From Botryllus schlosseri (lineage: Eukaryota), in NCBI GenBank assembly GCA_051294905.1, contig CM119371.1, positions 32,862,001-32,926,000 on the forward strand: DNA of 64,000 bases, written 5' to 3'. Numbering within the stretch: the first letter of the stretch is position 1; each line of letters begins with the position of its first letter. The notes beneath the pieces are model-generated. The model saw only the letters and a program-made list of their open reading frames with translations, was not told the origin of the DNA and made no database searches. The translations under genes and the position numbers were made by a program. Shown in pieces: positions 5,648 to 64,000 of this stretch.

Positions 5648-5733
5648 TAGGGTTCCAATACGTCCGGAATTTCCGGGACATGTCCGGAATTTCACGGTTC
5701 AAGCTTGCGCCCGGGAGGAATTCCTAAGATATG
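5648..5733. mobile_element. Left end of a hAT-like MITE (TAGGGTTCCAATACGTCCGG...) split by element 1
   Basis: TAGGG terminus and GTCCGGAATTT repeats. The motif resumes as ATGTCCAGAATTT at ~22180 after the TSD. Confidence 0.55.
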
Positions 5734-8700
5734 AGTAGTATATATGATCGCTCGTGATTTGCCTGGGGTTCTTATGGGCCCGCTCGACCGGTGCCGCGGA
5801 ACTCGTGTTGAACCGGGGACCCTTTTGACCCCCCCTTGCGGTGATGACTCGTACTTTCAGACCCCCCTTCCGCTTGACCGGTGCCTGGGTTGGTATAGGC
5901 ATCTCTCGACCGGTAACCCTTTTCGGTATAGGGATCGCTCGACCGGTGTTGAAGAAGTATCAAGTAAATAGTCACGTGATTGGTCCTTAGTTAATGTGTA
6001 TATCCCAAATTATTTTATATGACCGATTCGGGTTAATCCTAACGTTTACGGTGAATGCGACTTCAATATATCGTTATTCTTATGGATGCGGCGATGATTG
6101 GTACTTTCGGGTATAGGCGGCGGCGGCGGCATGCTAACGTGAAAACCGGGGGTGGCATGCTAATGTTTTTAGGTATACGTGCGGCGACATGCTAACGACG
6201 ATAATGTGTCTGTCATGTATTCTTACGGGATCTCTGGTGATGTGCCATTGTTTCTTATGGGTGCGACGGCATATCGTACTCATGGATATAGGAATCTATC
6301 ACACGGTGTTGAATATGTATCAAGTAAATAATCACGAGTATCACTAAACAGGAAATTCACTAAACCCCAGTGCAATGTACGATTTTGAAAAACAGATATT
6401 CGCGACCGCGTTTTGACATTTGTGACCCACTAAATACATCCGTTTTGGAAACGCGTCCTGTTGTGCAAGAGGATTTCGAGCGCGCACTATCGTATCGATT
6501 ATTACACTAATCCAGTCAGTACTATTACATGCAGGAGTATTCCGTATTCAGCAGCGACACGAAAAGCGACCAACAAATAACCGCACTCGTAAATTAACAT
6601 CTCAAAAAGTGTAAAATAGATTGCAAATCCCGCGATCGCTAACAAGATAATGTCTCGGGCCTAACCATTTTTAGTGACTTGGTGTTAAAGACATACCGAT
6701 CGCTCACAAGGTAATATTTCGGTAATTAGTTTACCACAGAGCCGGCGTAGACGGTGATTCGAAAACCAACAATTTGACGCTTTCTGGTGCTTGCTATATG
6801 TTTTGACACTTCGGAAAGTGGTTGAATTTAGTTGTATGATAAGAATCATGTGAATATACAAGTAATGTGTCAATTTGTCAACTTGAAATGAAACTTACTA
6901 CACAAACCAAGTTGATTCGTATGTGTCAATTCGGTACAATTCTAATTATTTTGAGAAATCTTTTTAACGTGATCTTTTGATTCGACCGTAACCTGAATAT
7001 TACTGACGCCGACTTTCAGCCACATCGAATTATTCGCACATTCCGCGCCGCTGTTTTCACAATCATAGAATCAATACCAACTATAACTCTACAAGAATCA
7101 AGAATCACAAGTATGTGCATTATACAGTTATTGTCTTTATTAACTTGAAATCAAACTCTTAACAAAAACACACATCTTATCACTCGTCAACTCTATCATG
7201 AAAATCCTCGAGTCCTTATTATCACAAATGTTATAGCGCGGTGTCGGAATCCATTCGCGGGATGTACTAAAGGTAAATCCAGATAATCCAAAATGAAATA
7301 TTTGGACTTTGACATAATCTGAATTGAAATATATTGACAAACATGACTACCAACTTTGATCCAGTCACATTTCAAGATCATACTTTGAAACAATCCTTGA
7401 AACTTACAACTCTATTCACGACTGAGTTTTCCGTTTATCAAATAGAGTTTCAGTAAATACTATCGCGAAATTTTAATGTGTTACTACACACAATAGAATC
7501 AATCAATGAAATAACACCTGTTGTAAATATTTCTAACTTGACAACCACTTGTGCATACCGCGATCGACTTGTGACGCGATGAGTTAAATCGGAATATTTC
7601 AATCTATTTGTCGATACCTTGAACAAACTATCAGGTTATTTTTTGTTGCAATCGAGTGAACGGAAATAGTATTACGTCTCAACATTTTAACATCTTCCCA
7701 TACACAAAAGAGTAAAATACAAAAAAACCTTGTCAAGTAAATCCGTTTGTAACTTACCCGACCAACTCAAGCAGTTAGCCAAGCATACACGAGTAATCAC
7801 CACAATCCAAAATCCATAACAAGTTCGGTTGTACTCATAGTCCACCAACTCGTATTTTATTCAACTTCAAAAGTCGTTACTATTCTGTAAGAAAGAGGAA
7901 TTACTACGCGGTATATTCTGCAAGACAAAGTAATTATTACTCGATATATTTTGTAAGACAAAAGTAATTACTACCCGCTGCAGGTGACTTGAGATTAACA
8001 TAATATGTTCGAGTATACGAGATTTGAAAGTCTGATCAACGTAGTCGCGACTTCATTTCTTACAATCGAACGTTGGTGTTATATTCAAAGTTATCATACT
8101 ATAAACATAAGGATTGACACATTGATTCGACATATGAGATTTTGTAATAGTTGATCACGACTTGACTATTAAATTATTCGCGTTAATTAGACCCGGCGTT
8201 GTGTTGAAAGTTATGACAGCAACAAACTTTTCGGAAACATTGTTATTAAAATATCGATTTGTAAATCTATACTTGTCTGAAATGTTCGTGATTTGAAAGA
8301 TATTCCGTGTTGGTACAAATCACTCTGCGTATTACGGATATCAGAAAATATTTCCAGTACCCAAGACTAAAGATGAAACAACAATTTCGTTTGCTGATTA
8401 ACAACCGGTGCAATACTTTACTGTCGGGATCTGCGGTGAGAATTGAAACTTACACACATTACGCAGTACGAAAATATCACTTTGGGCTCCGGAAGGAGTC
8501 ATTTAATCCGTGTTAAACTCGGTTCACACTCTCTGTTGAAAATGTGCGAAATTTAAAAACATTACGAGGTCACACTCTAAGACTTTGATCATCAAAAAGT
8601 AAATAGAGCTATCTTTACTGGACGGCTTCTATTCAACCGGTCTTGATTAATACAAAACCCATAACAATAATATCGAAGTACGTGCTACACTGAAATCTAC

Positions 8701-10699
8701 AAAAATGTGTTTGAGAAATTAAAAATTTTCCCATTGTCATTCGTCAAAGTAAATGTCGTCACAATACTCTATCACTAAAAAACCATATACTTGTATGTGA
8801 TTGAATCACCAGCAATTAACTAGCTAAATCAAACCCCTAAGAAATTTCACTCACTCATTGGATATTAAACAACGTTGCTTAATCGGTGTGAGTCGTTTTT
8901 TCTAAATATAAATCATATCTGTCCATCAGAAAACAATTTTCACTCACTTGGGTAATGAAATCAGTGTGCAATATCAATACAAGATATTTCCGTCACACAA
9001 TAAATAATCAACTTCACTCGAAATTTCCATACGACGAAACTGTACAAAGGTTTCATGTTTTTTTGTATGAAATGGAATTAATACCGATCGAAGTAACAGT
9101 ATTAGAAATGACTTTCAAACAAAGACACTATATGTGGTTAACATTCTCATCGATTCTATTGTGATCAATGTATATTTCATGTGATCTGGATTCATTTCGA
9201 TATGGTTAAACATTCAACCTCAACGGATACGAATCGTCACACACTCAAGTAATATCATACCAAATAGGTATTTACAACAACCAAGACACAGAAAATTTGT
9301 TTGGTCGTTTCGATTTTATTACTGGAGGTACTCATCACTTCGCTTAATACAATCTAGATTTAAACTCCATCGAACCTTTGGAGCCTATCGTTTTGCTGGA
9401 TACGAATTATGTTAGTCTAACAGTACACAATTTTCACTATCTTGGGTTATGAACTCAGTATGTTAGCGATCATTCAATATTTTGTAGTATCAACTAGTTA
9501 CTTCGTAGGATACGAATGATCATCCTCACAACTCTTACAAAAGTACGAAGGATATTTACATCACACAAAGTAATCGACTTTACTCGATATCCTCACACTA
9601 CGAAACTGAATGGTTGGTTTGACTCTACAAACTGTTTTTGATGTCACAAGAACTTTTTTTTTCACGAATGGTCACGCATCTAAATATTCAAATATTCCAA
9701 CACACACAACTATAGTACTTAGAGAAATATCATAGTTCTTGTAACAAAGTTGTATATGTACAATGCTTATCGTAGGTCCTACACATTTACGATAGCCGTC
9801 AGAGTTTGACTTTTAGAAACATTATACCGACATCGTGACATCTTTCAAAATTAGAACCACGGTGACTACTTGAGAGACTTATCAATGATATCGCAGTAAT
9901 AGAGTTACTTCCACAAAAGAGTATGTATTCGACTTACGTTCCACAAATCTAACGCGTAAAACAATTTACTTTGCTAACGAAAAGCGCTGAGTCATCACAT
10001 GGTTGTCTTCACAACAATACAACTAAAACATACTATCATACAAAATGATCGTTATAGTTTGCACACCAATGGTACATCGTACAAGTAACAAGTCTCGAGA
10101 ATCCAGTTACTCAAAAAACGTGAAAGTATTTTTACGCCAAGTCGTTATGTTGACGAAAGCGTATATTGTAATATCATGATCGATTTGCATTCGTTGGCTG
10201 CAAAATGTCACTACTCCAAATAATCATATCTCACTCAAAAGCATACTTGTCACCATTCGTTTTCATCAAGCACGAGTTCAAGAAACTTACTACGATATCA
10301 ATTGTTATTTTTATGTTGTGTAAATAGGTAATAATTAATTTTAGTAACACTATATCAACATCACGGAGTTGTGCGAATAGATTTACACGTAGTCTTGTGG
10401 TTTTAATCGAAGTACACAGCACGGTCTAATGTAGAGTCATCTCTATTGTGCAGCAACTCGGTAATCGAAATGCATTAACATTTGAACAGCGATCTTGTTT
10501 CGTCACACCAAAAATATGTTCACTGTCGCGATACTCTACACAAGACGTGCAAATCCTTTTCACACTCGTAATAGTATAACAACAGCTACCGGTGATAACG
10601 TTTAACAATACCAACGACACTAAACATACGATACCTACCCAAGTAAAATTATCATTTTCACCTGGAGGTCAGTCGTTACCCGAGTAGAAATACCGTTGT

Positions 10700-11250
10700 C
10701 CTTTGACGATTTATCGTTTACCCAGTGTAACAAACCCCTTTTCCTTTGGAAATCTATTTTTTCTCTGGGTAACAAACCTTTTTCACTTGGAAATATATTT
10801 TTTTCTCTGGGTAACAAACCTTTTTTACTTGGAAATATATTTTTCCCTGAGCAACAAACCATTTTCACTGAGCAACAAACCATTTTCACTGAGCAACAAA
10901 TCATTTTCACTTCGCGGGTCGTCGTTTACCTGAGTAAAAATATCATTTACCTTTGGAGATCTGGCGTTTCCCCAGTGTAACAATACATTTTTTCATGGAA
11001 ATCTACCTTTTCCCTGAACAACAAACCCTTTTCGTTTGCAAATCTATTTTTTTCCTACAACAACAAACCATTTTCACTTGGAAAAATACTTTTACCTAGG
11101 GTAACTAATCATTTTATTTTGGAAATATATTTTCTCCCTGGGCAACAAACCCTTTTCGTTTGGAAAACTATCATTTACCTGAGTACCAATACCGTTTTCA
11201 CTTGGAAATCTATCTTTTCCCTGGGTAACAATACCATTTTCGTTTTGAAA
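10700..11250. repeat. Minisatellite (~39-40 bp unit, ~20 bp subunit) in element 1 spacer
   Basis: Repeated CTGGGTAACAAACCTTTTCACTTGGAAATATATTTTTT and CTGAGCAACAAACCATTTTCA. Confidence 0.9.
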
Positions 11251-13867
11251 ACTGACAACTACACCGGTCAATTCTGATATTTTTTGTATATTGTTACAAC
11301 AGACAGTGACAAAATATACACCAACAACGACTCCGATACATTTGTGTAATCACATATTCACTTGTTCTGGTGCATCCCATCAAAACCCTCAGTTACCCAC
11401 ATGTAATGCGCTGTATATCGATGTGTATGTTTTGGAAATTGGACAATAGGTTTCGACATGTCCGCGATGTCCGGGTTCGCGCTTTGGATTTTCCAGAGTC
11501 AAAATGTCTGAATAAAACACCTCCTCGACGATGGTTGGTATGTGGATAACGGTGTTCGGTAAACGGTTGGATTTATGTCACCCATCGCGATAACAATTCC
11601 AGGTCGAGTTTTCCCCCCGCATGTTTACTATATTGTATCTTTATTGGTCAATGTATGTCCCGACATTCAGTTTGAAATCGGAAAGCCTGATAAAGTATGT
11701 AACCGGATCCGGATATCAACTCTGAATCGATAAACCAATGAACAATATTCAAAGTAAACATGTTACACCCTGTGTTTCCACGAAAAAATACCATCCAGAC
11801 ATACGTCACGCTTGTTTGCCCACACCAGTATACGCGTAAATGGAGGTGTGTGACATTGCATCCAATGTGTTGGTATACAAACATCGGGGAGTAAGCCTTC
11901 GATCCACAGACATTATCATAGCCGGTAGTTTTGATGTAGATCGAATGCCATCAAGCACACCCGATAACAATGTCAGACCAATAAGCCACATTGCAATGAC
12001 TCTGAGTCCGCGCTATTACATCGATATTTCGACACCGTTCACTGATTTACTCGATCAGTCTTTCACTAAATCACGATGCATGGATGTCGCTACTCCCACA
12101 TAACGACTCCGGATAAATATCGCGAAGAGTGATTCTGAAAACAACTTTGTTACAAGAACTATGATATTTCTGTAAGTACTATAGTTGTGTGTGTTGGATT
12201 ATTTGGATATTTAGATGCGTGACCATTCCTGAAAAAAAAGTTCTTGTGACATCAAAAACAGTTTGTAGAGTCAAACCAACCATTCAGTTTCGTAGTGTGA
12301 GGATATCGAGTAAAGTCGATTACTTTGTGTGATGTAAATATCCTTCGTACTTTTGTAAGAGTTGTGAGGATGATCATTCGTATCCTACGAAGTAACTAGT
12401 TGATACTACAAAATATTGAATGATCGCTAACATACTGAGTTCATAACCCAAGATAGTGAAAACTGTGTACTGTTAGACTAACATAATTCGTATCCAGCAA
12501 AACGATAGGTACCAAAGGTTCGATGGAGTTTTAATCTAGATTGTATTAAGCGAAGTGATGAGTACCTCCAGTAATAAAATCGAAACGACCAAACAAATTT
12601 TCTGTGTCTTGGTTGTTGTAAATACCTATTTGGTATGATAATACTTGAGTGTGTGACGATTCGTATCCGTTGAGGTTGAATGTTTAACCATATCGAAATG
12701 AATCCAGATCACATGAAATATACATTGATCACAATAGAATCGATGAGAATGTTAACCACATATAGTGTCTTTGTTTGAAAGTCATTTCTAATACGGTTAC
12801 TTCGATCGGTATTAATTCCATGTCATACAAAAAAACATGAAACCTTTGTACAGTTTCGTCGTATGGAAATTTCGAGTGAAGTTGATTATTTTTTGTGTGA
12901 CGGAAATATCTTGTATTGATATTGCACACTGATTTCATTACCCAAGTGAGTGAAAATTGTTTTCTGATGGACAGATATGATTTATATTTAGAAAAAACGA
13001 CTCACACCGATTAAGCGACGTTGTTTAATATCCAATGAGTGAGTGAAATTTCTTAGGGGTTTGATTTAGCTAGTTAATTGCTGGTGATTCAATCACATAC
13101 AAGTATATGTTTTTTTAGTGATAGAGTATTGTGACGACATTTACTTTGACGAATGACAATGGGAAAATTTTTAATTTCTCAAACACATTTTTGTAGATTT
13201 CAGTGTAGCACGTACTTCGATATTATTGTTATGGGTTTTGTATTAATCAAGACCGGTCGAATAGAAGCCGTCCAGTAAAGATAGCTCTATTTACTTTTTG
13301 ATGATCAAAGTCTTAGAGTGTGACCTCGTAATGTTTTTAAATTTCGCACATTTTCAACAGAGAGTGTGAACCGAGTTTAACACGGATTAAATGACTCCTT
13401 CCGGAGCCCAAAGTGATATTTTCGTACTGCGTATTGTGTGTAAGTTTCAATTCTCACCGCAGATCCCGACAATAAAGTATTGCACCGGTTGTTAATCAGC
13501 AAACGAAATTGTTGTTTCATCTTTAGTCTTGGGTACTGGAAATATTTTCTGATATCCGTAATACGCAGAGTGATTTGTACCAACACGGAATACCTTTCAA
13601 ATCAAGAACATTTCAGACAAGTATAGATTTACAAATCAATATTTTAATAACAATGTTTCCGAAAAGTTTGTTGCTGTCATAACTTTCAACACAACGCCGG
13701 GTCTAATTAACGCGAATAATTTAATACCCAAGTCGTGATCAACTATTACAAAATCTCATATGTAGGTAGGTAGGTATTAGGGGGGGTATGGGGCTTAGCT
13801 ACGTGGCTTTTTTCCCCATGACGATAACTAGCGATTATTCGCGACTATACCAATGGGTTACGACTGT

Positions 13868-16800
13868 TCATATAGCCCTTCCACTTGCTATCGTGAATTC
13901 GATGACTTGCCGTATAGTATGCTCAACTGTTAGCAGAGACTTGGGCGTTAATGATACTTTATTCCGCTCTGCGGTCTGTAGTAGATTCGTCCCGGCATGG
14001 TCATACTTAGGGCAGCGAAGGAGAAAGTGTTCCACGTTTTCTTCGATCCCGCACAAATCACAAAGGCCATTTTGGTCACATTTCATCCTGTGGAGATGGC
14101 CGTTCAGCCTAGAATGGCCAGTCTGCAATCGAATTAGAATTCCGGCTTCTCTGCGAGACAAATTCATGATTGGTTTCACGTCCCTGATAACTCCGATAAT
14201 ATTTTTATATTGCGAGTCGTCTTCATTTGCATTCGTGTGAGCGATCCACTTTTCCCGACATTTACCGGCAATGTGAGATTTTATTTCCTTCGCAGTTAAT
14301 TTTTGTTGGAGGGTTTCATCGCGTGTGGGAGGCCTCACGGCTGCCCGCCTTGCGATTTCATCAGCTTTTTCGTTACTGCGGATGCCCTTATGGCCGGGGA
14401 TCCAGGCCAGAACCAGTCCGATATCTAATGCATGTATATCCGATCCTAGGAGGTGGATATCGGCGATGATTTCGTTGTCTGGAGAGCAGTTTCGGATCGC
14501 CATTAGGCTGCTCTGGCTGTCTGAAAAAATAGCCACTCGACTTTCTGGCGTACCATTACGTTTGACCCAATACAGACTATTCCGGATGGCTATCAACTCT
14601 GTCGAGAGGACTGATAACTGACCGTCAAGGGTAAAACCGGAACATGCGTCTCTATTCTCCACGAAGAAACTGGCCCCGCACCCTGAGGAGGTTTTCGAGC
14701 CATCAGTATATATTCTGATGCTCTCTGCGTATTGCTCGTGTATGAATTCTTCGGCGATATATTTCGCCAGATCGGGATGGTCATCTTTCGATATTACCGA
14801 AGCCAGGCGTAAGTCAACGCCTATCTTCGGCCGTGACCATGGTGGCAACGGGAACTGTTTGTAGGTTTGGACGATAGGGCCTTCGAACATATCCTGTCCC
14901 GTCACCATGTTGAAGGTTCGGAATGAGTGTTTGTCCGGAAATATTTCATGCCACGAGCCGGTTATCAACTACATTTGCCACTATCCTAGACCGCGAGTTT
15001 AGGCAAAGTTGCAAGTGACGCAACCACATGGGAGGCTCCCCACTCGAAAGTTGCAATGCATGCAAGGGCGTGCTCCTCATTGCTCCGCAGCAAATGCGAA
15101 GTGCAGTATTCTGAATTTTCTGTATTTCATCAATTACGTATTTTGGGGAAAGTAGGTATGCTTCGGAACCATATTCCATTATTGATCTTATGGCGGATCT
15201 GTAAAGCGTCAATAAACTCGATTTTGATGCCCCCCAAGATGTTCCCGAAAGAAGACGTAACAAATTCATCCGTTTACTACATTTCGCAGTAACGGCGCGG
15301 GCGTGGCTTTGGTAGTTTAGTCGATAGTCGAATAGGATTCCGAGGTACTTGAATTCCTTAACGACTGGCAAGACAGATTCTCCGAGACTTAAGCGAATCG
15401 TAGGGATTTTGAGGCGCCTCGTGAACAATACGGCGGCGGATTTGGATATATTGATTTTGAAACCCCAATCCTTGCACCATATCCTGATTTTATCAAGAGA
15501 ATTCTGAATAACGCTCTGCACATCGCTTAGGATCAAACTAGAGTCCCATATGCAGACATCGTCGGCGAACAGATTGATATTGGTTGCTATTACTTCGGGC
15601 AGGTCGTTCATCATGATTGAGAAAAGCAAAGGGCTGATAACACTTCCCTGCTGCACGATTCCGTTTGTAAGTTCATGGACGTCTGATAGGGTGTTGTTTA
15701 TACGAACTTGAAATGTCCTTTGTGCCAAGAAGGAGTGCAGCCAGTGGATAATGTTACCTGCGAGACCGAGGCGTTGAAGCTTTAGAATGACCCCGTTTCT
15801 CCATACCATGTCGTACGCCTTTTCTATATCTGAGAAAACTGCTATGGCATCTCGCTTGTTCCAGACAGCTTTATACACATGGTCATGTAACGCGAGAATG
15901 CAATCGCTCGTGGACCATATCGACGAAACCCAATTTGTTGGTGGTTTAACAGATTTTTCTGAGTAAGCCACCATTCCAAACGATTTGCGATCATACGCTC
16001 CATTGTTTTACACATGTTGCTTGTGAGCGAGATAGGACGATAGGAGGATGTCTTGGTTTCGTCTTTGCCTTGCTTAAGTATGGGAACAATATTTGAATGC
16101 TGCCACGATTCAGGACAAGAACCCAATGCCCAGATGTCATTGATGGCCGATAGCATGATCAACTGACTTTCCTCGTCCAGGTGCTGCAGCATCTGGTAAC
16201 AGATTCTGTCAGCTCCCGGGGACGTGCTTTTGTTACGGTTCCAGATTACACACTTCATTTCCATCATATTGAATGGCGCATTTATTCCGAGTGTTTGTGT
16301 GTTATTTCCAATAGGGTGTAACGATAAATTAGTTTCCATTAAAGCACGCCTTTGCAGGAAAGAACAGTCTAACTTGTTGTTGCTGCTAAACTCAGCAAAA
16401 CTATTTGCGAGAGCATTGGCCTTTTCCTTGTTGTCAGTCAGATGAATGTCAAGATCATCGAGTACATTGATCTGGTTCCAGGACCTGCCGCAACCGTTAA
16501 TCGATCGCACGACGCGCCACACTCGGCTCAATTTTGAATTGTGATCAAGAGAAGTACAAAAGTCGTCCCAATAGGATTTTTTGGCCGAAAGTATTATCCT
16601 TCTCGCATCGGCTCGTCTTTGCTTAAAGACTATGATATCTGCCATTCTGAATGATCGTTTCAGTTTGCAGAAGGCAGCACGTTTGCGGCGGACAGCCCGG
16701 GAGCAACTATCGTTCCACCATGGGACGGAACTTTTACCTGCGATATGTTGTGTGAGGGGTATGCTCTCGGTCGCGGCTTTGATTATCGAATTGCTGACTG

Positions 16801-17575
16801 TTTCTATGGTTTTCTCGTCTAGATCTCTCAGGTATTGCGAACATAGCTTCTGAAATTCGTTCCAGTTAGCTTTTTTAAAGGACCACGACCGGTAATGGAA
16901 ATCGTCTCGGTGCCTTGGTAGCTGTAGGTCGTTCATTACAACAAAACGGTCACTCCCTAATAGTTCGTCTGTAACCTAGGTTATAACATTTGGAGCGATA
17001 TCTCTTGACGCAATGCATAGGTCCAGGAGTGAAGTCCTGGTGGTACTCGATACGGAAATATCAATACGAGTTGGCTTTGTTGTATTGACAACTACCAAGT
17101 CATTTGCATCAATTATTGAGTGAAGATGGCGGCCATTGCTATTTCTTGCGCCACTACTCCATATTGGATGGTGGGAATTGAAATCACCCAAAAGAATCGT
17201 TCTCGTGTTGCACTGCGCAAAGCATCGCTCGAAGAGGGTGCGTGAAATTGCTCGATTTGGTGGGATGTACACGTTTACTATCTGCAAGTCGTGAAATTTG
17301 ATAATCTGGGCCTCTATCGGATAGATGTTGTCTATGGGAACTTCAAAGAATGGTAGGTCTTGTCTGACGAAGATACAGACACCACCTCCGTGTTGGTCGC
17401 GATCTTTCCTATTAAGTTTGTAATTTGAAAGTCTGGGCGTGTATTTGTCGATCAAGTGTGTCTCCTGAAGGGCGATGACGTCGGGCATTGCGTCGAGTTT
17501 TTCCAAAAAATATTTTAATTCGTGAATTTTTCGATATATCCCTCTACAATTCCATTGCATGATCCTTATCGGCAT
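13868..17575 (-). pseudogene. LINE ORF2: AP endonuclease, reverse transcriptase, RNase H, C-terminal Zn knuckle
   Basis: APE: QWNCRG, LQET, GDFNSHH. RT: YRPISLTS, DIEKAYD, QGSVISP, LFADD, KYLG. RNase H: YTDGSK, FSDSQS, WIPGHKGIRSNEKAD. Knuckle: CDLCGIEENVEHFLLRC. Broken by a stop at 16976 and frameshifts near 15920 and 14960. Confidence 0.95.
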
Positions 17576-19577
17576 TGGGTACCGTAACTCGATACGAGAG
17601 AGTCAGGAATAGATGGAGTAACGTGCGTTGTCGTGGCGCTCGGGTTGGCAATAGAGGAGCTCATTTGTGTTGCCGAGTAGGTGCCATGTGGCTCGAACCG
17701 TTGCACTTCAGGTACGGAAATGACCGGTTCTACACTGGAATTTGTAGTGTTTGGTGTAGGTACGCTGTTGGAGGATAAGTCCATTGCTACCTCGTTATTG
17801 AGTCTAGGAATCGGTACAGATATACCAAGGTTTTCACCCGCGGACTTCGCGATGATCGATTCGATATCAACTGTCTTGTTCTCCGCAAACGAAAGAAGGG
17901 TATTCTTGATAACTTCCGCAATAAAGGTGAAAAACGATTCAGTTGGGATTGTTATATTGCCATTCATTTGAGTAAGGCATGTACAGTAGGGCTATTCAAA
18001 AATAACTTTTTTTTCAGATTCCAGCCATTCACTGATTAAATTGTCAGGTTACCCTAAAAAACACTGCACACCAAATTTGGTTCGATTCTAACAAGTATCG
18101 GACTCCGTAGATCCAATTAAAATTTTTAATTTATTATGGAAAATGAAAAAAAAAATTCCAAATTTTTCTGCCAACCCCATGAAGTTGTTGAGCTGTCTTC
18201 AAAGACGTTGCAAAACAAATTTGAGTCAATTCCGACCAGTAGAAGCGGAGTTATGTAAGTTTTTCGTTGATCAATCGCGGATTATCACCGATCAAGGATA
18301 ATCCGAGGATTATCATCGAAAAACTCACATAACTCCGCTTCTACTGGTCGGAATTGACTCAAATTTGTTTTGCAACGTCTTTGAAGACAGCTCAACAATT
18401 TCATGGGGTTGGCAGTAAAATTTGGAATTTTTTTTTTTTCATTTTTCATAATAAATTAAAAATTTTAATTGGGTCTGCGGATGCCTTTACTGGTTGGAAT
18501 CGAGTGAAATTTGGTGAGCAAGGTTTTCTACTGCAACCTGACGATTTAAGAGGTGAGCGGCTTGAATCGGGAAAAAAAAGTTATTTTTGAACAGCCCTAA
18601 TGTACAGCTCGAAGATTTGCTTGACATGGGAGCGGCGTTCGACTTCGCAACGGGTTGTGACGCCCTTTCTGTAGATGTATGGCCCTTTGTGCTGAGCTGC
18701 ACAGAGCATTCCGAACGTGTCTCGACTACTACGGCTTCTTTCGGGGCGGTTTTCTGTTCTTCCAATTTACGCGCGTCCCAATAATTTATCTTATCATTAG
18801 CCATAATAGATTGAATTCGCGCCTTTTTCTTAAACCGGGAGCATCCTGCATAGCCTGCAGAGTGGGCTAAGCCACAATTTACACAATAAGGGTCCTTATT
18901 GCAGTTGTCGTATGTATGTTTGTTTCCACATTTCGTACATCTCTGCGCGCTCCTGCAATACTTAGATTTATGCCCGAAACGGTTACAATTGAAACACCGA
19001 GTTGGTGGCGGATTATAGACCCTGGTACGGAATCGAAGAAAACCTATTTGTACCACAGTTGGTAGAGTGGGAGACGCAAAACATAAGAGAACAGAGGTAC
19101 TCTTCGCTAGACCTTTTACACCACGATACGGAAAGCGACGCACGAACGCGACACGAGCGAGTTTTCAAGAGCTTCAAGTATTTCCTGGTCGGATAGATCG
19201 ATAGGAACATCCGATATGACGCCTCGACTTTCCAATGGTTTACTACGATATAGCTCTGCCTTGATTTCAATATTAATTTTCCCCTCACCAAGATCGGTGC
19301 ACGCCAAGAGTTTCGTCACCTGATTTGAGTTAGAACAAACTGCACAAAGGTTTCCCGAGGGAAGAACCTTAATCTCCTTGTACGAACCGCCTATGACTCG
19401 CACTAAACTGCGATTGATAGTAATCGGATTGTACCGTCGCAGAGGTTTAGCGATTCCTGAAATAACTACCGAGGTGTCATCCGGGCAGAGGATAACAGAT
19501 CCGCTACTCCTGCCTTTTGATGCCGGACCTTCGGCTTCCTCACTAGCTGGGCGCTTATGCCCGCCAGATCCGCTCAT
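17566..19577 (-). pseudogene. LINE ORF1 gag-like protein with three CCHC knuckles
   Basis: MSGSGGHKRPAS... start. Knuckles CFNCNRFGHKSKYC, CTKCGNKHTYDNC, CVNCGLAHSAGYAGC. Frameshift near 19140 and interrupted by MITE 17987-18599. Confidence 0.9.
17987..18599. mobile_element. hAT MITE, almost entirely palindromic
   Basis: TIR TAGGGCT(A/G)TTCAAAAATAACTTTTTTTT. Perfect 8-bp TSD ATGTACAG (17979-86, 18600-07). Internal inverted symmetry centred ~18295. Confidence 0.95.
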
Positions 19578-22199
19578 CTTAGAACGTCTGGCTACAACTA
19601 TAGCAATGGACAAACAGTATCGCTGTAAGGCGAGACAAATGCCCCTAGAACTAATTACAAAGGCTTTCTCCGGACTAATTCGCAAACGTAATGATCGCGC
19701 TGAAGGCACGTCCTATCGCTACGACGTTCACCGAGAGAGAAATCTCATATGTCGAATCAATGTGTCAATCCTTATGTTTATAGTATGATAACTTTGAATA
19801 TAACACCAACGTTCGATTGTAAGAAATGAAGTCGCGACTACGTTGATCAGACTTTCAAATCTCGTATACTCGAACATATTATGTTAATCTCAAGTCACCT
19901 GCAGCGGGTAGTAATTACTTTTGTCTTACAAAATATATCGAGTAATAATTACTTTGTCTTGCAGAATATACCGCGTAGTAATTCCTCTTCCTTACAGAAT
20001 AGTAACGACTTTTGAAGTTGAATAAAAATACGAGTTGGTGGACTATGAGTACAACCGAACTTGTTATGGATTTTGGATTGTGGTGATTACTCGTGTATGC
20101 TTGGCTAACTGCTTGAGTTGGTCGGGTAAGTTACAAACGGATTTACTTGACAAGGTTTTTTTTTGTATTTTACTCTTTTGTGTATGGGAAGATGTTAAAA
20201 TGTTGAGACATTATACTATTTCCGTTCACTCGATTGCAACAAAAAAATAACCTGATAGTTTGTTCAAGGTTTCGACAAATAGATTGAAATATTCCGATTT
20301 AACTCATCGCGTCACAAGTCGATCGCGGTATGCACAACTGGTTGTCAAGTTAGAAATATTTACAACAGGTGTTATTTCATTGATTGATTCTATTGTGTGT
20401 AGTAACACATCAAAATATCGCGATAGTATTTACTGAAACTCTATTTGATAAACGGAAAACTCAGTCGTGAATAGAGTTGTAAGTTTCAAGGATTGTTTCA
20501 AAGTATGATCTTGAAATGTGACTGGATCAAAGTTGGTAGTCATGTTTGTCAATATATTTCAATTCAGATTATGTCAAAGTCCAAATATTTCATTTTGGAT
20601 TATCTGGATTTACCTTTAGTACATCCCGCGAATGGATTCCGACATCGCGCTATAACATTTGTGATAATAAGGACTCGAGGATTTTCATGATAGAGTTGAC
20701 GAGTGATAAGATGTGTGTTTTTGTTAAGAGTTTGATTTCAAGAGTTTGATTTCAAGTTAATAAAGACAATAACTGTATAATGCACATACTTGTGATTCTT
20801 GATTCTTGTAGAGTTATAGTTGGTATTGATTCTATGATTGTGAAAACAGCGGCGCGGAATGTGCGAATAATTCGATGTGGCTGAAAGTCGGCGTCAGTAA
20901 TATTCAGGTTACGGTCGAATCAAAAGATCACGTTAAAAAGATTTCTCAAAATAATTAGAATTGTACCGAATTAACACATTCAAATACGAATCAACTTGGT
21001 TTGTGTAGTAAGTTTCATTTCAAGTTGACAAATTGACACATTACTTGTATATTCACATGATTCTTATCATAGAACTAAAGTCAACCACGTTCCGAAGTGT
21101 CAAAACATATAGCAAGCACCAGAAAGCGTCAAATTGTTGGTTTTCGAATCACCGTCTACGCCTGCTCTGTGGTAAACTAATTACCGAAATATTACCTTGT
21201 GAGCGATCGGTATGTCTTTAACACCAAGTCACTAAAATGGTTATGCCCGAGACATTATCTTGTTAGCGATCGCGGGATTTGCAATCTATTTTACACTTTT
21301 TGAGGTGTTAATTTACGAGTGCGGTTATTTGTTGGTCGCTTTTCGTGTCGCTGCTGAATACGGAATACTCCTGCATGTAATAGTACTGACTGGATTAGTG
21401 TAATAATCGATACGATAGTGCGCGCTCGAAATCCTCTTGCACAACAGGACGCGTTTCCAAAACGGATGTATTTAGTTGGTCACAAATGTCAAAACGCGGT
21501 CGCGAACATCTGTTTTTCAAAATCGTACATTGCACTGGGGTTTAGTGAATTTCCTGTTTAGTGATACTCGTGACTATTTACTTGATACATATTCAACACC
21601 GTGTGAGAGATTCCTATATCCGAAAGTACGATATGCCGTCGCACCCATAAGAAACAATGGCACATCACCAGAGATCCCGTAAGAATACATGACAGACACA
21701 TTATCGTCGTTAGCATGTCGCCGCACGTATACCTAAAAACATTAGCATGCCACCCCCGGTTTTCACGTTAGCATGCCGCCGCCGCCTATACCCGAAAGTA
21801 CGAATCATCGCCGCATCCATAATAATAACGATATATTGAAGTCGCATTCGCCGTAAACGTTAGGATTAACCCGAATCGTTCATATAAAATAATTTGGGAT
21901 ATACACATTAACTAAGAACCAATCACGTGAGTATTTACTTGATACTTCTTCAACACCGGTCGAGCGATCCCTATACCGAAAAGGGTTACTGGTCGAGAGA
22001 TGCCTATACCAACCCAGGCACCGGTCGAGCGGAAGGGGGGTCTGAAAGTACGAGTCACCACCGCAAGGAGGGGGTCAAAAGGGTCACCGGTTCAACACGA
22101 GTTTCGCGGCACCGGTCGAGCGGGTCCATAAGAACCCCAGGCAAATCACGAGCGATCATATATCCTACTGATTTGCCTAAATGTCCAGAATTTGAGGCT

Positions 22200-22430: not shown

Positions 22431-22872
22431 GGATCATTCTTGCCCGAGATATTATTAAATTTTATGCGCCTCGATCAACAGTCTTTATTCGGACGATTAG
22501 CATTCTCCCGGGTGAGATAACATTATGATATTCGCCCTTAATGCGCCACGATTAGGGCCTACCAGTTTTCAATCACGTGATTATAGAATTCTCCTGGATT
22601 ACCTAACCTAATAATTTCCGCCCAAACTTAATTCAAACTTTCGTACCGCTTCGGTAAACAACATTCGGTGGCATCACTATCAACCAACTCTTGAGCGTTC
22701 CAACTGCGCAAGCCTGATATTCATACGCAATTTGATTGGTTGATAACACTGCCGCCAATTTGCCTATGGTCGACGGTGCGATCGCATATCTTTTCGCACT
22801 TTCTTCGCCTGTTGGTTCGGCATTGAATTTGCACAGCACACCTTTGTTGACTGTTGGCCGTTCTTTGCTTGC

Positions 22873-26949: not shown

Positions 26950-27330
26950 CACCATCGTTTTGACGACGCTGTTTCAATTTCGTCGACTCATTTCCAGCAA
27001 ATCAATGTCAAATTAATTTGTCAATAATTAGCACTTTCATTATCTCAACTCTATCACAGCCCAGCATTAAGATGTAAACCCGTGAAAAAAGCTCCACTTT
27101 CTCTTCAGGCATGCCTGAAACACGATATTTCGTGATATAGAAGTGTCAAAATTAGCCACCGTAAATAGGTACTATGAATTCAGAAATGGTCGAAATTTCA
27201 ATTTTAGATTTCACGGCCTTTACTGACCGGAATTGACCAAAATTTGGTGTATAGCGTTTTTTAGGCAACCTGACGATTTTATCGCTAAGCGAATGAAATT
27301 AGGACAAAAAGTTATTTTTGAACAATCCTA
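26950..27330. mobile_element. hAT MITE related to 17987-18599, left TIR lost
   Basis: Right end AAAAAGTTATTTTTGAACAATCCTA. 8-bp TSD GTGGACAT (26942-49, 27331-38). The LINE reading frame rejoins across it. Confidence 0.8.
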
Positions 27331-53770: not shown

Positions 53771-53979
53771 ACAGCCAATATTAAAGTACAAGCACGATAT
53801 CTAGCGCAGACTCGGGCCACATAAAATGCCACAATGCTGAAGTATATATTGACGTTTTAACGTCCCCAAATGCATCAACTGGGGCAATCAAATGATATAA
53901 TAAACCCATAAAATCAATATCTTTCGTCGCTTTGCTAACAATTTCGACGAGGACTTGCAAGGGAATATAAGCGTACGCC

Positions 53980-56900
53980 AGTAGTTAAGTAGATCTCTCG
54001 TGAGGTGGCAGGGGCTCTTATGGGCGGGGTGGTGACCTGCCGCGAAACCCGGGGTGATGACCCCACCCTTTTAGACCCCCTATGTGGTGGTGACCTGCCA
54101 TTGTTTCTTATGGGCGCGGTGATGATACCACCCTTTCGGGTATAGGCTGCGGCGATGATATACCTTGAAAACTCGTGTTGGTGACCCCACCCTTTCGGTA
54201 TAGGCTGCGGTGATGACCTGCCGTCTCGTGTTCGAGGGAATCCCAACGTTTACGGTGAATGCGACTTCAATATATCGTTATTCTTATGGCCGCGGCGGTG
54301 ATTCGTACTTTCGGGTATAGACTGCGGGTGGCATGTCGTACTTTCAACAAAAAAGGCGTGAAAATAGTTTGCAAAATCTAGGAATAACTAGCAAGGTAAT
54401 ATTTGGTAATTAGTTTACCAGAGAGCCGGCGTAGACGGCGATTCCAATACCAACAATAGCCGCGTTCACATATTAACACTCCAAATAGGTGTGAAATAGT
54501 TTGCAAACCCTGCGATCGCTGACAAGATAATGTCTCAGACATACGCGACTTGATGTTACAGGCATATCGATCACTCACGCGGTGAAATTTTCGTAAGCAG
54601 TTTGGGACAGAGCTTGATTTCACTCGTAAGATTTAATAAGTAACGAATAACAGACCGCCAGGGTCGGTAACTTGAATAGCGACAAATTGCCACTTATTTC
54701 CGCTCTAACCCTAATCCTTTGTGAAGTGAACGCTTATTCAAAAAGGTGTGAAATATTGGTAAAATCTCGCGACCGCTCACAAGATAATACCTAAGACATA
54801 ACCATCGCTCGCGACTCGCTGTTACATACACGCCGATCGTTGACAATGTAATATTTTGGTAATTGGTTTGCCACATAACCGGCGTAGACGGTGATACCAA
54901 CAATAGCCGCGTTCACAAACTAACACTTCAAAAAGGTGTGAAATAGGTTGCAAACCCCGCGATCGCTGACAAGATATTGTCTCGGACATAACCATCTTTC
55001 GCGACTTGCTGTTACATACATTCCAAACACTCACAAGATACTATTTTGGTACTTAATTTGTCACAGAACCGGATTTCGCTGGTAAAATTTAATAAGTAAC
55101 GAATAACAGAGCCGGCGTAGACGGTGATTCGAATACCGACAAATTTTCACTTATTTCTGTCCCAACCCTAATCCTCTGTGAAGTTGACGCTTATTCAAAA
55201 AGGTGTGAAATAATTGTAAAAATCCTACGTCGCTGACACGATAATGCATCAAACATAGCGATCTAGTTATAGTACGGTGTCGGAATCCATTCGCGAGATG
55301 TTCTAGAGGTAAATTGAGATAATCCGAAACCGAATATTTTGACTTTGGCGTAGTGTGAATTGAAATAGGATTGACAAACATGACTACCAACTTTCCCACA
55401 GTCCCGTTTCGATATTATACACACATTGATTTGAAACAAGTAATGTAACATTGCAACTCTATTCACGGCCCCGCTTTCCGTTTGTCAAAGAGATATTTTA
55501 ACATCTTACCATACTGAAAAGAATTATTCACAACAATAACAATTGTTAAAAATCTAGTTTTCACTTACTTGATTATATCACTACAACTCATAAATTTGAA
55601 TTAATTCATCCTGGTTGTATTCGTATGATCGGTCTTTTTTTTTATTCGATTGTAAAGGTCGTTACTATTCTGAAGACAAAGTATTTACTAATCGGTGCAT
55701 ACACGATTCGACTTGAACATATTATATTTTGAGTATACGAGATTTCAATGTCTGAACAATAACTGAGAAATAATTTATCACAATTAAATCCGTAAAAGAT
55801 ATTTGAATGTCAGCAACTCGGTAAGGTCATAGTTACTACCACATTACCTAATTTACCCGACCAACTCGTCATGATCATTCCCGAAATCAACACAAACATG
55901 ACTACTGACTTGAGTCAACCACAAAACAGCATCAAGTTTTAAATCCGCTTGTAGCTTACGGCTTATTTGAATGCGGGTTATGTTTTGTTGTAATTGAGTG
56001 TACGGAAATAGTCTTACGTCTCGACATCTCACCATCTTGCCATCAACAAAAGAGTAAAATACACAAACCTTGTCAAGTCAATCCGTTTGTAACTCACCGA
56101 ACCAAAGCAAAAAGTGTCCATACGAAAAGTAGACAAGACTACGCAAGTAATCACTACAACCCACAAACATATCAAGTTCGGTTTTAGGCATATACCACCA
56201 ACTCGTCTTTTTTGTTCAACTGTAAAAGTCGTTACTATTTTGCAAGACAAAGTAATGACTACTCGATAGATTTTGTAAGACAAAAGTAACTACTACTCGA
56301 TGCAGGCGCCTTGAGATTAACCTAACATGTTTGAGTATACAAGATTTGAAAGTCTGGCCATCGTAGTTGAGAATTCATTTCTTACAATCGAACGTAGGTG
56401 TTATATCGAAAATTATCATGATGTAAACATAAGGATTGTCACATCGATTTGACATATGGGGTTTTGTAATGGTCTATCATGACTTGATTACTAATTTATT
56501 TGTGTTAATTAGACCCGCCGATGTGGTGAAGGTTATTATGACAGCAACAAACTTTTCACTATCATGGCTATTAACATATTGAGTTGTAAAACTATACGTG
56601 TCTGAAATGTTCTTGATTGACAAATCATTCCACCTTGGTACAAATCACTCTGGGTATCGCGGATATCAGAAAATACTTTACAAATGTAATCGTTTCAGTT
56701 ACCAAGACTAAAGATGAAACAACAATTCCGTTTGCTGGCTAACAACCGGGCAATACTTTATTGTCAGAATCTGTGACGGTGAATTGAAACATACTCATCT
56801 TACACAGTACGAGTAAATCACTTTGGACTCCGGGCGGCGTCGTTTAATCCGTGTTAAACTCTGTTCACACTCTCTGTCGAATGTGTGAAATGTAAAACAT

Positions 56901-59900
56901 TACGAGGTTACACTCTAAGACTTTGATCAACAGAGAAACAATTTTGAATATCTTTACTGGATGGATCCTATTCAACCGACCTTGGTTAATACAAAACTCA
57001 TAACAATAATAAAATCGAAGTATGTGCTACACTGAAATCTAGAAAAAATGTGTTTGTATTGTTGTTCATAGTAGTGATATCGATTTGAACCTGCGGAATA
57101 ATTGTCATCATCTAACCAAACTAATGAAAGTCGTTGTCAATTTGTATGATGTTCACTGAATGCATACTAGTACTATTTGTGCAACACACACGAGCAGAGA
57201 AATTGGAAATTTTCCCATTGCCATTTGTCAAAGTAAATGTCGTCACAATACTCAGTCACTAAAAGACCATATACTTGTATGTGATTGAATCACCAACAAT
57301 TAACTCGCTAAATCAAATCGTAAGGCAATTTCACGCACTCAGCGGATATTACACAACGTCGCTTTATCGGTGTGGGTCGTTTTTTCTAAATACAAATCAT
57401 ATCTGTCCAGTAGAAAACAATTTTCACGCACTTGGGTAATGAAACCAGTGTGCAATATCAATACAAGATATTTTCGTGACACAAAAAATAATCAACTTAC
57501 TCGATATTCTCGTAAAACGAAACTGTACACAGGTTTCATGTTTTTTGTATGACACGGAATTAATACCGATCGAAGTAACTGTGTTGGAAATGACTTTCAT
57601 ACAAATACACTCTATGTGGTTAACATTCTCATCGATTCTATTGTGATCAATGTATACTATATGTATTCTGGATTCATTTCGATATGGCTAAACATACAAC
57701 CTCGACAGATACGAATTGTCACACACTCAACTAATATCATACCAAATAGTTATTTACAACAACCAAGACACAGAAAATTTGTTTTGGCCGTTTCGATTTT
57801 ATTACTGGAGGTACTCATCACTTCGCTTAATACAATCTAGATTTAAACCCCATCGAACCTTTGGTGTCTATCGTTTTGCTGGATACGAATTATGTTAGTC
57901 TGTTGGTGTCTATCGTTTTGCTAGATACGAATTATGTTAGTCTAACAGTAAACAATTTTCACAATCTTGGGTTATGAATTCAATGTGTTGGCGGTCATTC
58001 ATTATTTTGTTTGTATCAACTAGTTACTTTGTAGGGTATGAATGAGCACCCTCCCACAACTCTTACAAAAGTACGAAGGATATTTACATCACACAAAGTA
58101 GTCGACTTTACTTCATATCCTCACACTACGAAACCAAATGGTTGTGTAGACTCTACAAACTTTTTTACACGAATGGTCACACATCTAAATATTAAAATAA
58201 TCCAACACACAACTATAGTACTTACAGAAATATCATAGTTCTTGTAACAAAGGTGTTTATCGTAAGTCCTACACAGCCATGATATCCGTCCGAGTTTGAC
58301 TTTTAGAAAACATTATACCGACATCGCGACATCTTTCAAAATTAAAACCACTGTGACTGCTTCAGAGACCTACCAATGATATTGCAGTAATACAGTTACT
58401 TCCACAAAAGAGTATGTATTCGACTTACTTACCACAAATCTAACGCACAAAACAATTTACTTTACTAACGAGAAGCGCCGAGCCTCACATCAAAACAACT
58501 AGAAAGTGGAACTATATTAAAAAACGTCGCTAACCTTTGTGCACCAGCTGTAAATCACACAAGCAACATGTTTCAAGATTCTGGTTATTGAAAAACGTTA
58601 AAGTGTTTCTACGCCAAGTCGTTATGTTGACGAAAGCGTATACCATGATCGATTTGCATTCGTTGGTCACAAACTGTCACTACTCTAAATAATTAATTTT
58701 CACTCAAACACAAAAGCATACTTGTCACCAATCGTTTTCATCAAGCACGAGTTCAAGAAGCTTACTTACTACGACATGAATTGTTATTTTTATGTTGTGT
58801 AAATAGGTAATAATTTATTTTAGTAACACTACATAAACATCATCGAGTTGTGCTAATAGATTTACATGTGGTTTTAATCGAAGTACACAGCACGGTCTAA
58901 TGTAGATTCATCTCTATTGTACAGCAACTCGGTAATCGAAATGCATTAACATTTAAACAACGATCTTGGTTCGTCACGCGAAAAATATCTTTACTGTCGC
59001 AACACTCTGATACTCTGCACAAGATGTGTAAATCCTTTTCACACTCATAATTATACACTAACGGGATACCGACGTCAAGCAACAACGTTTAACAACATCA
59101 CTGACACTGAACATACGATACCTACCCAAGTAAAAATATCATTTTCACCAGGAGGTCAGCCGTTACTTGTGTACAATTACCATTTTCCCTTGGGAGTTTA
59201 GCGTTACCCGAGTAACAAAACCATTTTCACTTGGAAATATATGTTTCCCCTCAACAACAAACGTTTTTTCACTTGGAAATATATTTTTTCCCTGGGTAAC
59301 AAACCCCTTTTCACTTGGAAATATATTTTTACCCTGGATAACAAACCTTTTTCACTTGGAAATATATTTTTTCTCTTGGTAACAAACCTTTTTCACTTGG
59401 AAATATATTTTTTCTCTGGGTAACAAACCTTTTTCACTGAGCAACAAACCCTTTTCTCCCCAGGCAACAAACCCTTTTCGTTTGGAAAACTATCATTTAC
59501 CTGAGTACCAATACCATTTTCGTTTTGAAAACTGACAACTACACCGGTCAATTTGATATTTTTTGTATATTGTTACAACAGACAGTGACAAAATATACAC
59601 CAACAACGACTCCGATACATTTGTGTAATCGCATATTCACTTGTTCTGGTGCATCCCATCAAAACCCTCAGTTACCCACATGTAATGCGCTGTACATCGA
59701 TGTGAATGCTTTGGAAAATTGGGCAATAGGCTTCGATAGTTCTGTGATGTCCGGGTTCGTGCTTTGGATTTTCCAGAGTCAAAATGTCTGAATAAAACAC
59801 CTCCTTGACGATGGTTGGTATGTGGATAACGGTGTTCGGAAAACGGTTGGATTTATGTCACCCATCGCGATAACAACTCCAGATCGAGTTTTCCTCCCGC

Positions 59901-62900: not shown

Positions 62901-64000
62901 GTGTGATTTACAGCTGGTGCACAAAGGTTAGCGACGTTTTTTAATATAGTTCCACTTTCTAGTTGTTTTGATGTGAGGCTCGGCGCTTCTCGTTAGTAAA
63001 GTAAATTGTTTTGTGCGTTAGATTTGTGGTAAGTAAGTCGAATACATACTCTTTTGTGGAAGTAACTGTATTACTGCAATATCATTGGTAGGTCTCTGAA
63101 GCAGTCACAGTGGTTTTAATTTTGAAAGATGTCGCGATGTCGGTATAATGTTTTCTAAAAGTCAAACTCGGACGGATATCATGGCTGTGTAGGACTTACG
63201 ATAAACACCTTTGTTACAAGAACTATGATATTTCTGTAAGTACTATAGTTGTGTGTTGGATTATTTTAATATTTAGATGTGTGACCATTCGTGTAAAAAA
63301 GTTTGTAGAGTCTACACAACCATTTGGTTTCGTAGTGTGAGGATATGAAGTAAAGTCGACTACTTTGTGTGATGTAAATATCCTTCGTACTTTTGTAAGA
63401 GTTGTGGGAGGGTGCTCATTCATACCCTACAAAGTAACTAGTTGATACAAACAAAATAATGAATGACCGCCAACACATTGAATTCATAACCCAAGATTGT
63501 GAAAATTGTTTACTGTTAGACTAACATAATTCGTATCTAGCAAAACGATAGACACCAACAGACTAACATAATTCGTATCCAGCAAAACGATAGACACCAA
63601 AGGTTCGATGGGGTTTAAATCTAGATTGTATTAAGCGAAGTGATGAGTACCTCCAGTAATAAAATCGAAACGGCCAAAACAAATTTTCTGTGTCTTGGTT
63701 GTTGTAAATAACTATTTGGTATGATATTAGTTGAGTGTGTGACAATTCGTATCTGTCGAGGTTGTATGTTTAGCCATATCGAAATGAATCCAGAATACAT
63801 ATAGTATACATTGATCACAATAGAATCGATGAGAATGTTAACCACATAGAGTGTATTTGTATGAAAGTCATTTCCAACACAGTTACTTCGATCGGTATTA
63901 ATTCCGTGTCATACAAAAAACATGAAACCTGTGTACAGTTTCGTTTTACGAGAATATCGAGTAAGTTGATTATTTTTTGTGTCACGAAAATATCTTGTAT
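53980..64000. mobile_element. Element 2: second giant fold-back Polinton/Maverick-like element (right end beyond window)
   Basis: Starts AGTAGTTAAGTAGATCTCTCGTGA, homologous to the element 1 terminus and collinear with it over ~6 kb. 61197-64000 is the reverse complement of 57461-60264 (mirror ORF coordinates all sum to 121461). Spacer 60265-61196. Confidence 0.85.
59210..59530. repeat. ~40-bp minisatellite in element 2 left arm (mirror at 61931-62251)
   Basis: Same CTTGGAAATATATTTTTT..GGTAACAAACC unit as 10700-11250, but a shorter array. Confidence 0.9.

Follow-up and report, generated by a model that had tools for sequence, protein, structure and literature searches.

The window, i.e., the whole 64-kb stretch of DNA that was analyzed, contains two copies of a large palindromic element. 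We refer to them as W1 (positions 5734..22169) and W2. Their features and the insertions found in W1 are as follows.

5728..5733, + strand: W1 left TSD, GATATG
5734..9753, + strand: W1 left arm, 4,020-bp paired part
5734..6451, + strand: W1 terminal region in common with the coding Polinton TIR
9754..12008, + strand: W1 inner left arm, unpaired
12009..12140, + strand: W1 remnant of the family loop, ~130 bp (the family loop is 0.9 kb); loop gene gone
12141..13763, - strand: W1 right arm, inner piece, beginning at the junction of a ~2.9-kb deletion
13764..19739, - strand: LINE, a later insertion in the right arm only, with gag-like ORF1 (by motif), APE, RT and RNase H; frames broken
17980..18606: hairpin MITE-like insertion of 627 bp, nested in the LINE
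19740..22169, - strand: W1 right arm, outer piece with the right end CCTACT
22170..22175, + strand: W1 right TSD, GATTTG, one mismatch to the left copy
53974..53979: W2 left TSD, TACGCC
53980..60264, + strand: W2 left arm (6,285 bp; identity to the W2 right arm 100%)
60265..61196: W2 loop, 932 bp, complete
60365..60646, - strand: W2 loop gene of 93 aa; evolves under purifying selection and belongs to no known family
61197..64000, - strand: W2 right arm, which continues beyond the window to C1:32929481

W1 starts with AGTAGT at 5734 and ends with CCTACT, which differs by one change from ACTACT and whose last base is 22169. Its arms pair in two blocks, 5734-8142 with 19740-22169 and 8130-9753 with 12141-13763. 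There are 57 substitutions in 4,015 paired columns (1.42%) and nine indel events, and the mismatches occur along the entire arm length (3-13 per 500 bp). The AGTAGT...CTACT ends, the 6-bp GATATG/GATTTG TSD and the length of ~10.4 kb without the LINE (10,417 bases) given in the initial annotation are all confirmed. The same annotation placed 4020-bp arms around a 2387-bp spacer. The pairing is real and 2,387 bases between the arms are unpaired, but the “spacer” is mostly unpaired inner arm, a product of deletion. Segment 9754-12008 is inner arm, and its counterparts elsewhere in the family are paired; it contains, at about 10676-11250, an array of 42-bp repeats. In W1 this segment is unpaired because a private deletion of ~2.9 kb took away its mirror together with most of the loop, including the conserved loop gene.

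The LINE has the Pfam domains RT, AP-endonuclease and RNase H and is flanked by its own 13-bp TSD (13751-13763 and 19740-19752). Stop-to-stop frames of at least 120 aa in W1 are confined to the LINE stretch 13764-19739. The element had been called gene-less; this holds for W1, which has no long ORF outside the LINE, but not for the family, which carries the loop gene that W1 has lost. An Rfam search gave no match anywhere in the 64-kb window. No empty-site allele of W1 was seen in the one of four sequencing runs that provided coverage. W1 is an old, partly deleted, LINE-interrupted member of a large palindrome family.

The end pattern of this family has 2,148 matches in the genome and 11 for the reversed control, an excess well above chance. 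The family comprises roughly a thousand palindromes. A typical copy is 13-14 kb long and consists of arms of 6-7 kb, which make up more than 90% of the element, and a 0.9-kb loop; W2, for instance, has a total length of 13,502 bp. The copies were located via their ends, so the sample favors young ones; in the less selected list from C1, 24 of 42 non-coding end pairs measure 12.8-14.7 kb. The body and the loop are common to 29 of 34 palindromes. Ends of the (AGT)2//(ACT)2 type are present family-wide, and both ends are identical across 45 nt in 25 of 35 copies. The 6-bp TSD is exact in 33 of the 35 copies with both flanks and has one mismatch in the other two; none of the 35 has a TSD of 5 or 7-11 bp. 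These counts leave out C12b, whose ends could not be placed, and an outer copy on C1 for which only the left flank was available. The Polinton-type ends and 6-bp TSD proposed for W1 therefore hold for the family: the other copies share the TSD length and AGT termini, and the ends do not match a different superfamily.

Arm divergence within a copy is 0-1.7% in 30 copies, with a median of about 0.25% (C4b, 59 kb and not resolved, is excluded). Later insertions are confined to one arm in at least 12 copies. No coding signal was detected in the family arms, and ~5.5 kb of each arm is not traceable to a known source. The completely identical arms of some copies, such as W2, could suggest palindromes created in assembly from fold-back reads or collapsed repeats. 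We give this explanation a minimal probability, since every copy has two distinct unique flanks linked by a matching TSD, and the conserved loop, the one-sided insertions and the range of arm differences all speak against it. A 141-bp contig from run X1 also spans the right junction of W1 with zero differences, although this run may stem from the sample used for the assembly.

The initial annotation recommended a search for copies with pPolB, integrase, ATPase and capsid genes, and the genome does contain such a coding Polinton family, which shares its end sequences and target preference with the palindromes. It has at least about 90 copies: the ATPase gave 83 near-full matches at 94% or above and six partial ones, among 150 scored of 234 candidates. 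A genome search with the PF03175 profile gave no match, which was a false blank; pPolB was then located via the ATPase, and its PF03175 match is over the cut-off. The integrase is rve+chromo. The predicted structure of the capsid protein (pLDDT 92.8) matches double-jelly-roll capsids at E 5e-17. The protease is assigned by motif only, with no Pfam or PDB match. The TIRs are about 550-650 bp long, a 6-bp TSD is present in all four copies with both flanks, and the family terminus closes 18 of 20 further ATPase-bearing copies.

Ten of 31 terminal 21-mers, W1's included, are common to coding and palindromic copies; the other sampled Polinton families have different end sequences. In the terminal region of W1, bases 1-21, which include the (AGT)2 end, equal those of a coding copy on C12, and patches of 75-82% identity follow. 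Of 34 palindromes, 31 have a pyrimidine-purine step in the middle of the TSD, as do 21 of the 24 coding copies, against a background of 25%; the step is CG in 14 and 16 of them, respectively (background 4%). These ends and TSDs decide against a Foldback/MULE, hAT or other cut-and-paste element with Polinton-like ends by chance. Modular long inverted arms with internal repeats do resemble those of Foldback elements. However, Foldback/MULE elements have a 9-11-bp TSD, and a TSD of 8-11 bp is found in none of the 35 palindromes; in addition, the palindromes have terminal 21-mers and a target preference in common with coding Polintons. This reading, to which we assign a negligible probability, is refuted by the TSD length and the shared ends.

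Beyond the ends the two families have little in common. In most palindromes the homology to the helper is limited to the outer few hundred bases, and the remainder has no notable blastn or tblastx match. An origin of the palindrome interior from the helper by deletion is not supported for this reason. The view of the arm as a Polinton TIR grown to 4 kb likewise does not hold as stated: the family arm is ~6.3 kb long, the 4-kb paired arm of W1 is a private deletion product, and similarity to the helper stops after the first few hundred bases from the end. None of 34 palindromes examined has a tblastn match to the helper pPolB, integrase, ATPase or capsid; four of them hold helper end fragments only, and one more has short weak protease fragments. 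The shared ends and integration footprint make it very probable that the palindromes depend on the coding Polinton as a helper, and its enzymes are likely to mobilize them in trans.

The loop encodes the single conserved gene of the family, with a product of 91-93 aa and dN/dS of about 0.27. There are two subfamilies, ~60% alike. The dN/dS value points to retention of the gene through selection on the satellite. The protein has no match inside the sampled coding Polintons (one hit among 5,294 peptides lies outside a Polinton's end), in the metagenome and viral contigs searched, in Pfam or in PDB. The sole homolog found is 85% identical and lies on a 671-bp contig. An AlphaFold model (pLDDT 50) is all-beta, a fold search with it gave no meaningful match, and the Atlas matches, all scoring below 0.9, are leads only. 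RNA reads over the arm and loop number 62, 192 and 127 in three runs (3-6% of each sampled). They are few and scattered, may include read-through from host transcripts and do not suffice to call expression of the loop gene. Our guess is that the protein might modulate helper replication or packaging.

Each palindrome could in principle have arisen separately from the helper through a snap-back deletion, with no lineage of its own. The ends in common with the helper and the captured helper ends described below would fit this origin, and PMC13506859 describes snap-back defective genomes as palindromic. Against it stand the absence of notable helper homology past the outer few hundred bases, the body and loop common to most copies, and the loop gene with its two subfamilies, its dN/dS and its lack of a match inside the sampled coding Polintons. 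An independent snap-back origin is very improbable and already largely refuted.

The copies are mosaics. W1 and W2 are each 80-92% identical, patchwise, to 19 other copies. The outer 2.4 kb of the W1 left arm is mostly 94-100% identical to a C11 copy, the rest is 96-99% identical to a C5 copy, and the switch at ~2.4 kb occurs in both W1 arms. Four of 34 palindromes carry, mirrored across both arms, DNA of which the helper itself has just one copy; it comes from the protease side of the helper in three and from the opposite side in one. Such switches and captured helper DNA in both arms suggest that the arms are re-copied from one another during protein-primed replication, and we consider it rather probable that re-copying takes place at this stage.

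Alternatively, a plain non-autonomous element could be cut and pasted by the Polinton integrase, with its arms equalized later by host chromosomal gene conversion. Gene conversion between long, near-perfect inverted repeats is well established, as in sex-chromosome palindromes, and no extrachromosomal, terminal-protein-linked or packaged form of the palindromes was observed. A few copies have patches of arm mismatches close to the loop (a single 500-bp bin of C12a has 42, another copy 24); hence homogenization is sometimes incomplete, or ectopic conversion is also at work. Yet the one-sided LINE, LTR and nested insertions remain one-sided in at least 12 copies, and the arm-wide mismatches and altered TSD of W1 are what is expected from unchecked decay. 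Mirrored kilobase pieces of unrelated helper DNA are also not easily produced by short-tract conversion. We therefore regard this alternative as unlikely.

Overall, W1 is a deleted member of a palindrome family with the same ends and footprint as a coding Polinton, and this family is probably a satellite of that Polinton. Under the satellite model, the palindrome would be copied off the chromosome as linear DNA by the protein-primed polymerase of the helper, starting from the (AGT)2 ends. A hairpin with a stem of 6-7 kb and a loop of 0.9 kb would form from the displaced single strand, and annealing would exchange strands among different copies and with the helper. One arm would be trimmed and then re-copied off its partner, making each new molecule mosaic yet symmetric. 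Adenovirus terminal repeats are repaired via a panhandle, and copying of this kind would account for the identical arms of the palindromes. The helper integrase would insert the double strand at pyrimidine-purine steps, CG in most cases, with a stagger of six bases. After insertion the copy would decay, gathering point changes as well as insertions and deletions in one arm only, as exemplified by W1. In the 24 copies without large deletions (those with large one-sided ones are left out), the palindrome length is ~83-97% of that of the helper Polinton. The near-constant length would suit packaging in the helper capsid; this is the weakest step, and we propose packaging only tentatively. A more specific picture is conceivable, though somewhat doubtful: a Polinton virus satellite, self-complementary, 13-14 kb long and capsid-sized, which outnumbers its helper ~10:1 in the germ line, swaps ends, rebuilds its arms in each cycle and encodes a new-family protein acting on the helper.

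Non-autonomous Polinton derivatives are reportedly internal deletions or short elements (Kapitonov and Jurka in 2006 and Repbase are said to describe them so). They share with the palindromes helper-type ends and TSD without the core genes; judged by such descriptions, the palindromes differ in their helper-unrelated body, near-total palindromy, near-constant large size and selected gene. Transpovirons have a helicase gene and are not known to be near-total palindromes. They are ~7-kb DNA parasites of giant viruses of protists and are able to ride in their particles (PMC7031253, PMC11464507). The palindromes would likewise be DNA parasites of a DNA virus. Snap-back or copy-back defective viral genomes (PMC13506859) are transient by-products of the parent's own DNA. 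They too are palindromic and have two copies of one end, and the palindromes would share their helper dependence; in contrast to such genomes, the family forms a long-lived lineage that is integrated in the germ line and consists mostly of foreign DNA.

Autonomous Mavericks/Polintons have (AGT)2//(ACT)2 or (AG)3 ends (motif from PMC8097293). Intact vertebrate elements are 12.7-24.6 kb long, with TIRs of 46-1,447 bp and a median of eight copies per genome, as given in PMC8097293 and PMC6431247. Compared with these values, the palindromes are alike in the end motif, the 6-bp TSD and a length near the quoted range, but have long arms around a short loop instead of TIRs of ~50-1,500 bp around a coding interior, lack pPolB, integrase, ATPase and capsid, and number about a thousand against that median. 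Among the papers listed by our literature searches, none deals with a palindromic Polinton satellite. We designate the family a gene-poor palindromic Polinton satellite.

The replication of animal Polintons and the formation of their particles have so far been mostly inferred from gene content; a racket-shaped single-strand model of replication appears in PMC4196379. Symmetric mosaics and mirrored helper ends are the expected traces of hairpin-templated replication, so such a model becomes testable from sequence. Arm divergence provides an LTR-like clock for each insertion. About a thousand palindromes of 13 kb would add up to an estimated ~13 Mb, near 3% of the genome; they are likely to give rise to rearrangements and double-stranded RNA, a source that would escape repeat annotation and short-read assembly. 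If the satellite reading is true, every integrated copy would be a dated record of off-chromosome Polinton replication.

The palindromic element at 5734-22169 (W1) belongs to a family of Polinton-like elements in which two inverted arms surround a loop. The surrounding genome (496 Mb) also contains LINE and LTR elements. The features are listed in window positions unless prefixed with G000 and a contig.

5734-22169: W1, from AGTAGT to CCTACT, flanked by target-site duplications (TSDs) GATATG and GATTTG
13764-19739: LINE in the right arm of W1 only, with RT, AP-endonuclease and RNase H domains and a 13-bp TSD
53980-64000, on to G000:C1:32929481: W2, a complete second copy with 6,285-bp arms that are 100% identical; loop gene present
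G000:C1:32844841-32859018: third copy, 14.2 kb, ending 3 kb left of the window
G000:C11:4506703-4526063: separate Polinton, 19.4 kb, with 359-bp terminal inverted repeats (TIRs) whose first bases are not AGT

Re-measurement of W1 returned the ends, flanks, pairing and lengths of the initial annotation: the paired arms align over 4,015 columns, of which 1.42% are substitutions, 2,387 bases between them are unpaired, and the element minus the LINE comprises 10,417 bases. The description as 4020-bp arms around a 2387-bp spacer holds for the pairing. It does not hold for the anatomy, because 9754-12008 within this spacer is present twice, inverted, in other copies and is therefore arm sequence. 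After 12008, W1 retains a remnant of the family loop (about 130 bp) and then switches abruptly to the right arm at 12141; the lost sequence, about 2.9 kb, comprises 2.25 kb from the inner part of the right arm and the greater part of the loop. Copies on contigs C10 and C11 also have one-sided deletions. Their breakpoints differ from those of W1, and therefore these deletions look like decay following insertion. W1 is one of the two oldest copies among 30 measured for arm divergence. The LINE contains a hairpin MITE-like element (17980-18606) with relatives at 27216-27340 and 29615-29834, and immediately right of W1 (22747-23475, minus strand) lies a frame of 242 aa that matches nothing in Pfam.

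A pattern derived from the observed termini matched the genome 1,075 times forward and 1,073 times in reverse (4 and 7 for a reversed control). These end counts point to a family of about a thousand elements, coding copies included. A genome search with the loop protein gave 1,180 first-look candidates, 150 of which were scored. The usual copy has arms of 6-7 kb and a loop of about 0.9 kb; arm-to-arm difference is 0-1.7% (median about 0.25%, 30 copies with both arms measured). Length is 12.9-15.1 kb, with a median of 13.6, in 24 copies chosen for absence of large deletions. The 6-bp TSD proposed for W1 is general: it is exact in 33 of 35 copies with both flanks and off by one base in the other two. 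TSDs of 5 or 7-11 bp occur in none of these 35, and the Foldback/MULE alternative with its 9-bp TSD is rejected by this test. The first 45 bases are hypervariable among copies (mean 15.6 differences; one identical pair of 630); both ends of the same copy are identical over them in 25/35.

The third copy, W1 and W2 lie within 85 kb. Palindromes are nested in each other at G000:C1:97149-129104, 3275001-3303317 and 16768420-16810257, apparently three deep at 16.77 Mb. The copy at G000:C1:33469672-33483361 carries an additional terminus 153 bp inward, mirrored on both arms. DNA of this genome is present in seawater sequencing runs, which suggests a marine animal. Close family sequence is also present in run X10, which has a second organism label: 84 of 286 contigs match 59450-61196 at 99% or more, which may reflect either a related species or a label difference.

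Palindromes have no core genes, so an autonomous Polinton is ruled out. Their arms are also far longer than the TIRs of autonomous Polintons/Mavericks, for which PMC8097293 gives 46-1,447 bp. Copies with polymerase, integrase, ATPase and capsid genes, which the initial annotation suggested seeking, do exist as a coding family with the same ends (the helper). Coding Polintons on C11 were located through a Pox_A32 match; one of them ends with the family terminus, as do 18 of 20 further ATPase-bearing copies. Among 150 scored matches to its ATPase, at least 83 near-full and at least 6 partial ones reach 94%. Among the helpers sampled, those that retain both ends measure 15.4, 15.8 and 16.2 kb (13.2 kb in one internally deleted copy); their TIRs are about 550-650 bp long and their 6-bp TSDs are exact. 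They encode a protein-primed polymerase (pPolB; PF03175, E 1.4e-7), split or shortened in some copies, an integrase of the rve-chromo type, and a protease-like frame assigned from its motif. The predicted capsid model (pLDDT 92.8) matches double-jelly-roll capsids of iridovirus, PBCV-1, Sputnik and mavirus.

Coding and palindromic copies have 10 of 31 terminal 21-mers in common, including that of W1. The TSD centre is a pyrimidine-purine step in 31/34 palindromes and 21/24 coding copies (background 25%), and CG in 14 and 16, respectively (background 4%). Other Polinton groups sampled in the genome have ends unlike the family terminus. Among them are at least two whose ATPases are about 70% and 49% identical and which have their own AGTAGT-type ends; the 19.4-kb Polinton carries genes for a caspase-domain protein (PF00656) and a ubiquitin-conjugating enzyme (PF00179). 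A simple deletion derivative of the helper is rejected as an explanation of the palindromes; in most of them, helper similarity is absent beyond the outer few hundred bases.

Each of W1 and W2 shows 80-92% identity to 19 other copies; this identity is patchy, ranging from about 70 to 99%, yet the two arms within one copy are near-identical through all patches. In both arms of W1 the outer 2.4 kb is mostly 94-100% like a C11 copy, and further in the sequence is 96-99% like a C5 copy. Four of 34 palindromes carry, mirrored on their two arms, helper DNA that lies just inward of the TIR and occurs only once in the helper itself; in three it comes from the protease side and in one from the opposite side (1.1 kb, 94% identical). 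At least 12 copies have later insertions that are confined to a single arm. Therefore, arm symmetry was most likely established before insertion.

Adenovirus uses panhandle repair. By the simplest route, a Polinton single strand would fold on its terminal repeats and be copied by pPolB, and this, together with repair of the adenovirus type, may be the source of the symmetry. Such folding and copying has been proposed for Polintons (PMC4196379). Mismatch patches near the loop in a few copies speak against folded-strand copying, and so does the fact that no free form of the palindrome was seen.

The initial annotation called the element gene-less; the family nevertheless carries a conserved loop frame under constraint. 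When all ATG frames of at least 40 aa from 21 copies were clustered, the top cluster was a 91-93-aa frame in the loop, found in 29/34 copies. Its pS is 0.37 and pN 0.14 (dN/dS about 0.27), from 105 non-independent pairs among 15 intact copies; in all 15, every one of the five alternative frames is interrupted by a stop. Codon-phase scans gave 3/221 and 2/216 windows at p<0.01, a number attainable by chance, every one on this frame; the W1 arm gave 0/183. The predicted protein forms two subfamilies, about 60% alike, and matched no known family or reliable fold in Pfam, PDB, metagenome and viral contigs or a structure model. A putative short acidic frame at about 60650-60800 (plus strand) points away from the loop gene, with a same-frame end in 9 stretches.

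Palindrome length is 83-97% of a 15.6-kb helper (in a selected size set). For Mavericks, PMC8097293 describes a constraint on genome size and suggests capsid stability as the reason, and a gene-poor element holding 13 kb fits a size constraint from packaging. On C1, the distance between paired non-coding ends falls within 12.8-14.7 kb in only 24 of 42 cases, which counts against size constancy; we regard packaging in the helper capsid as a real but somewhat doubtful possibility.

The palindromes resemble a helper-dependent Polinton in their way of working and a snap-back genome (PMC13506859) in shape. No published account of such a family was found in the literature, a search separate from the repeat libraries Repbase and Dfam. 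New here are the deletion history of W1, the selection test of the loop gene, the target preference common to palindromes and helper, and the mosaic switch in both arms of W1.
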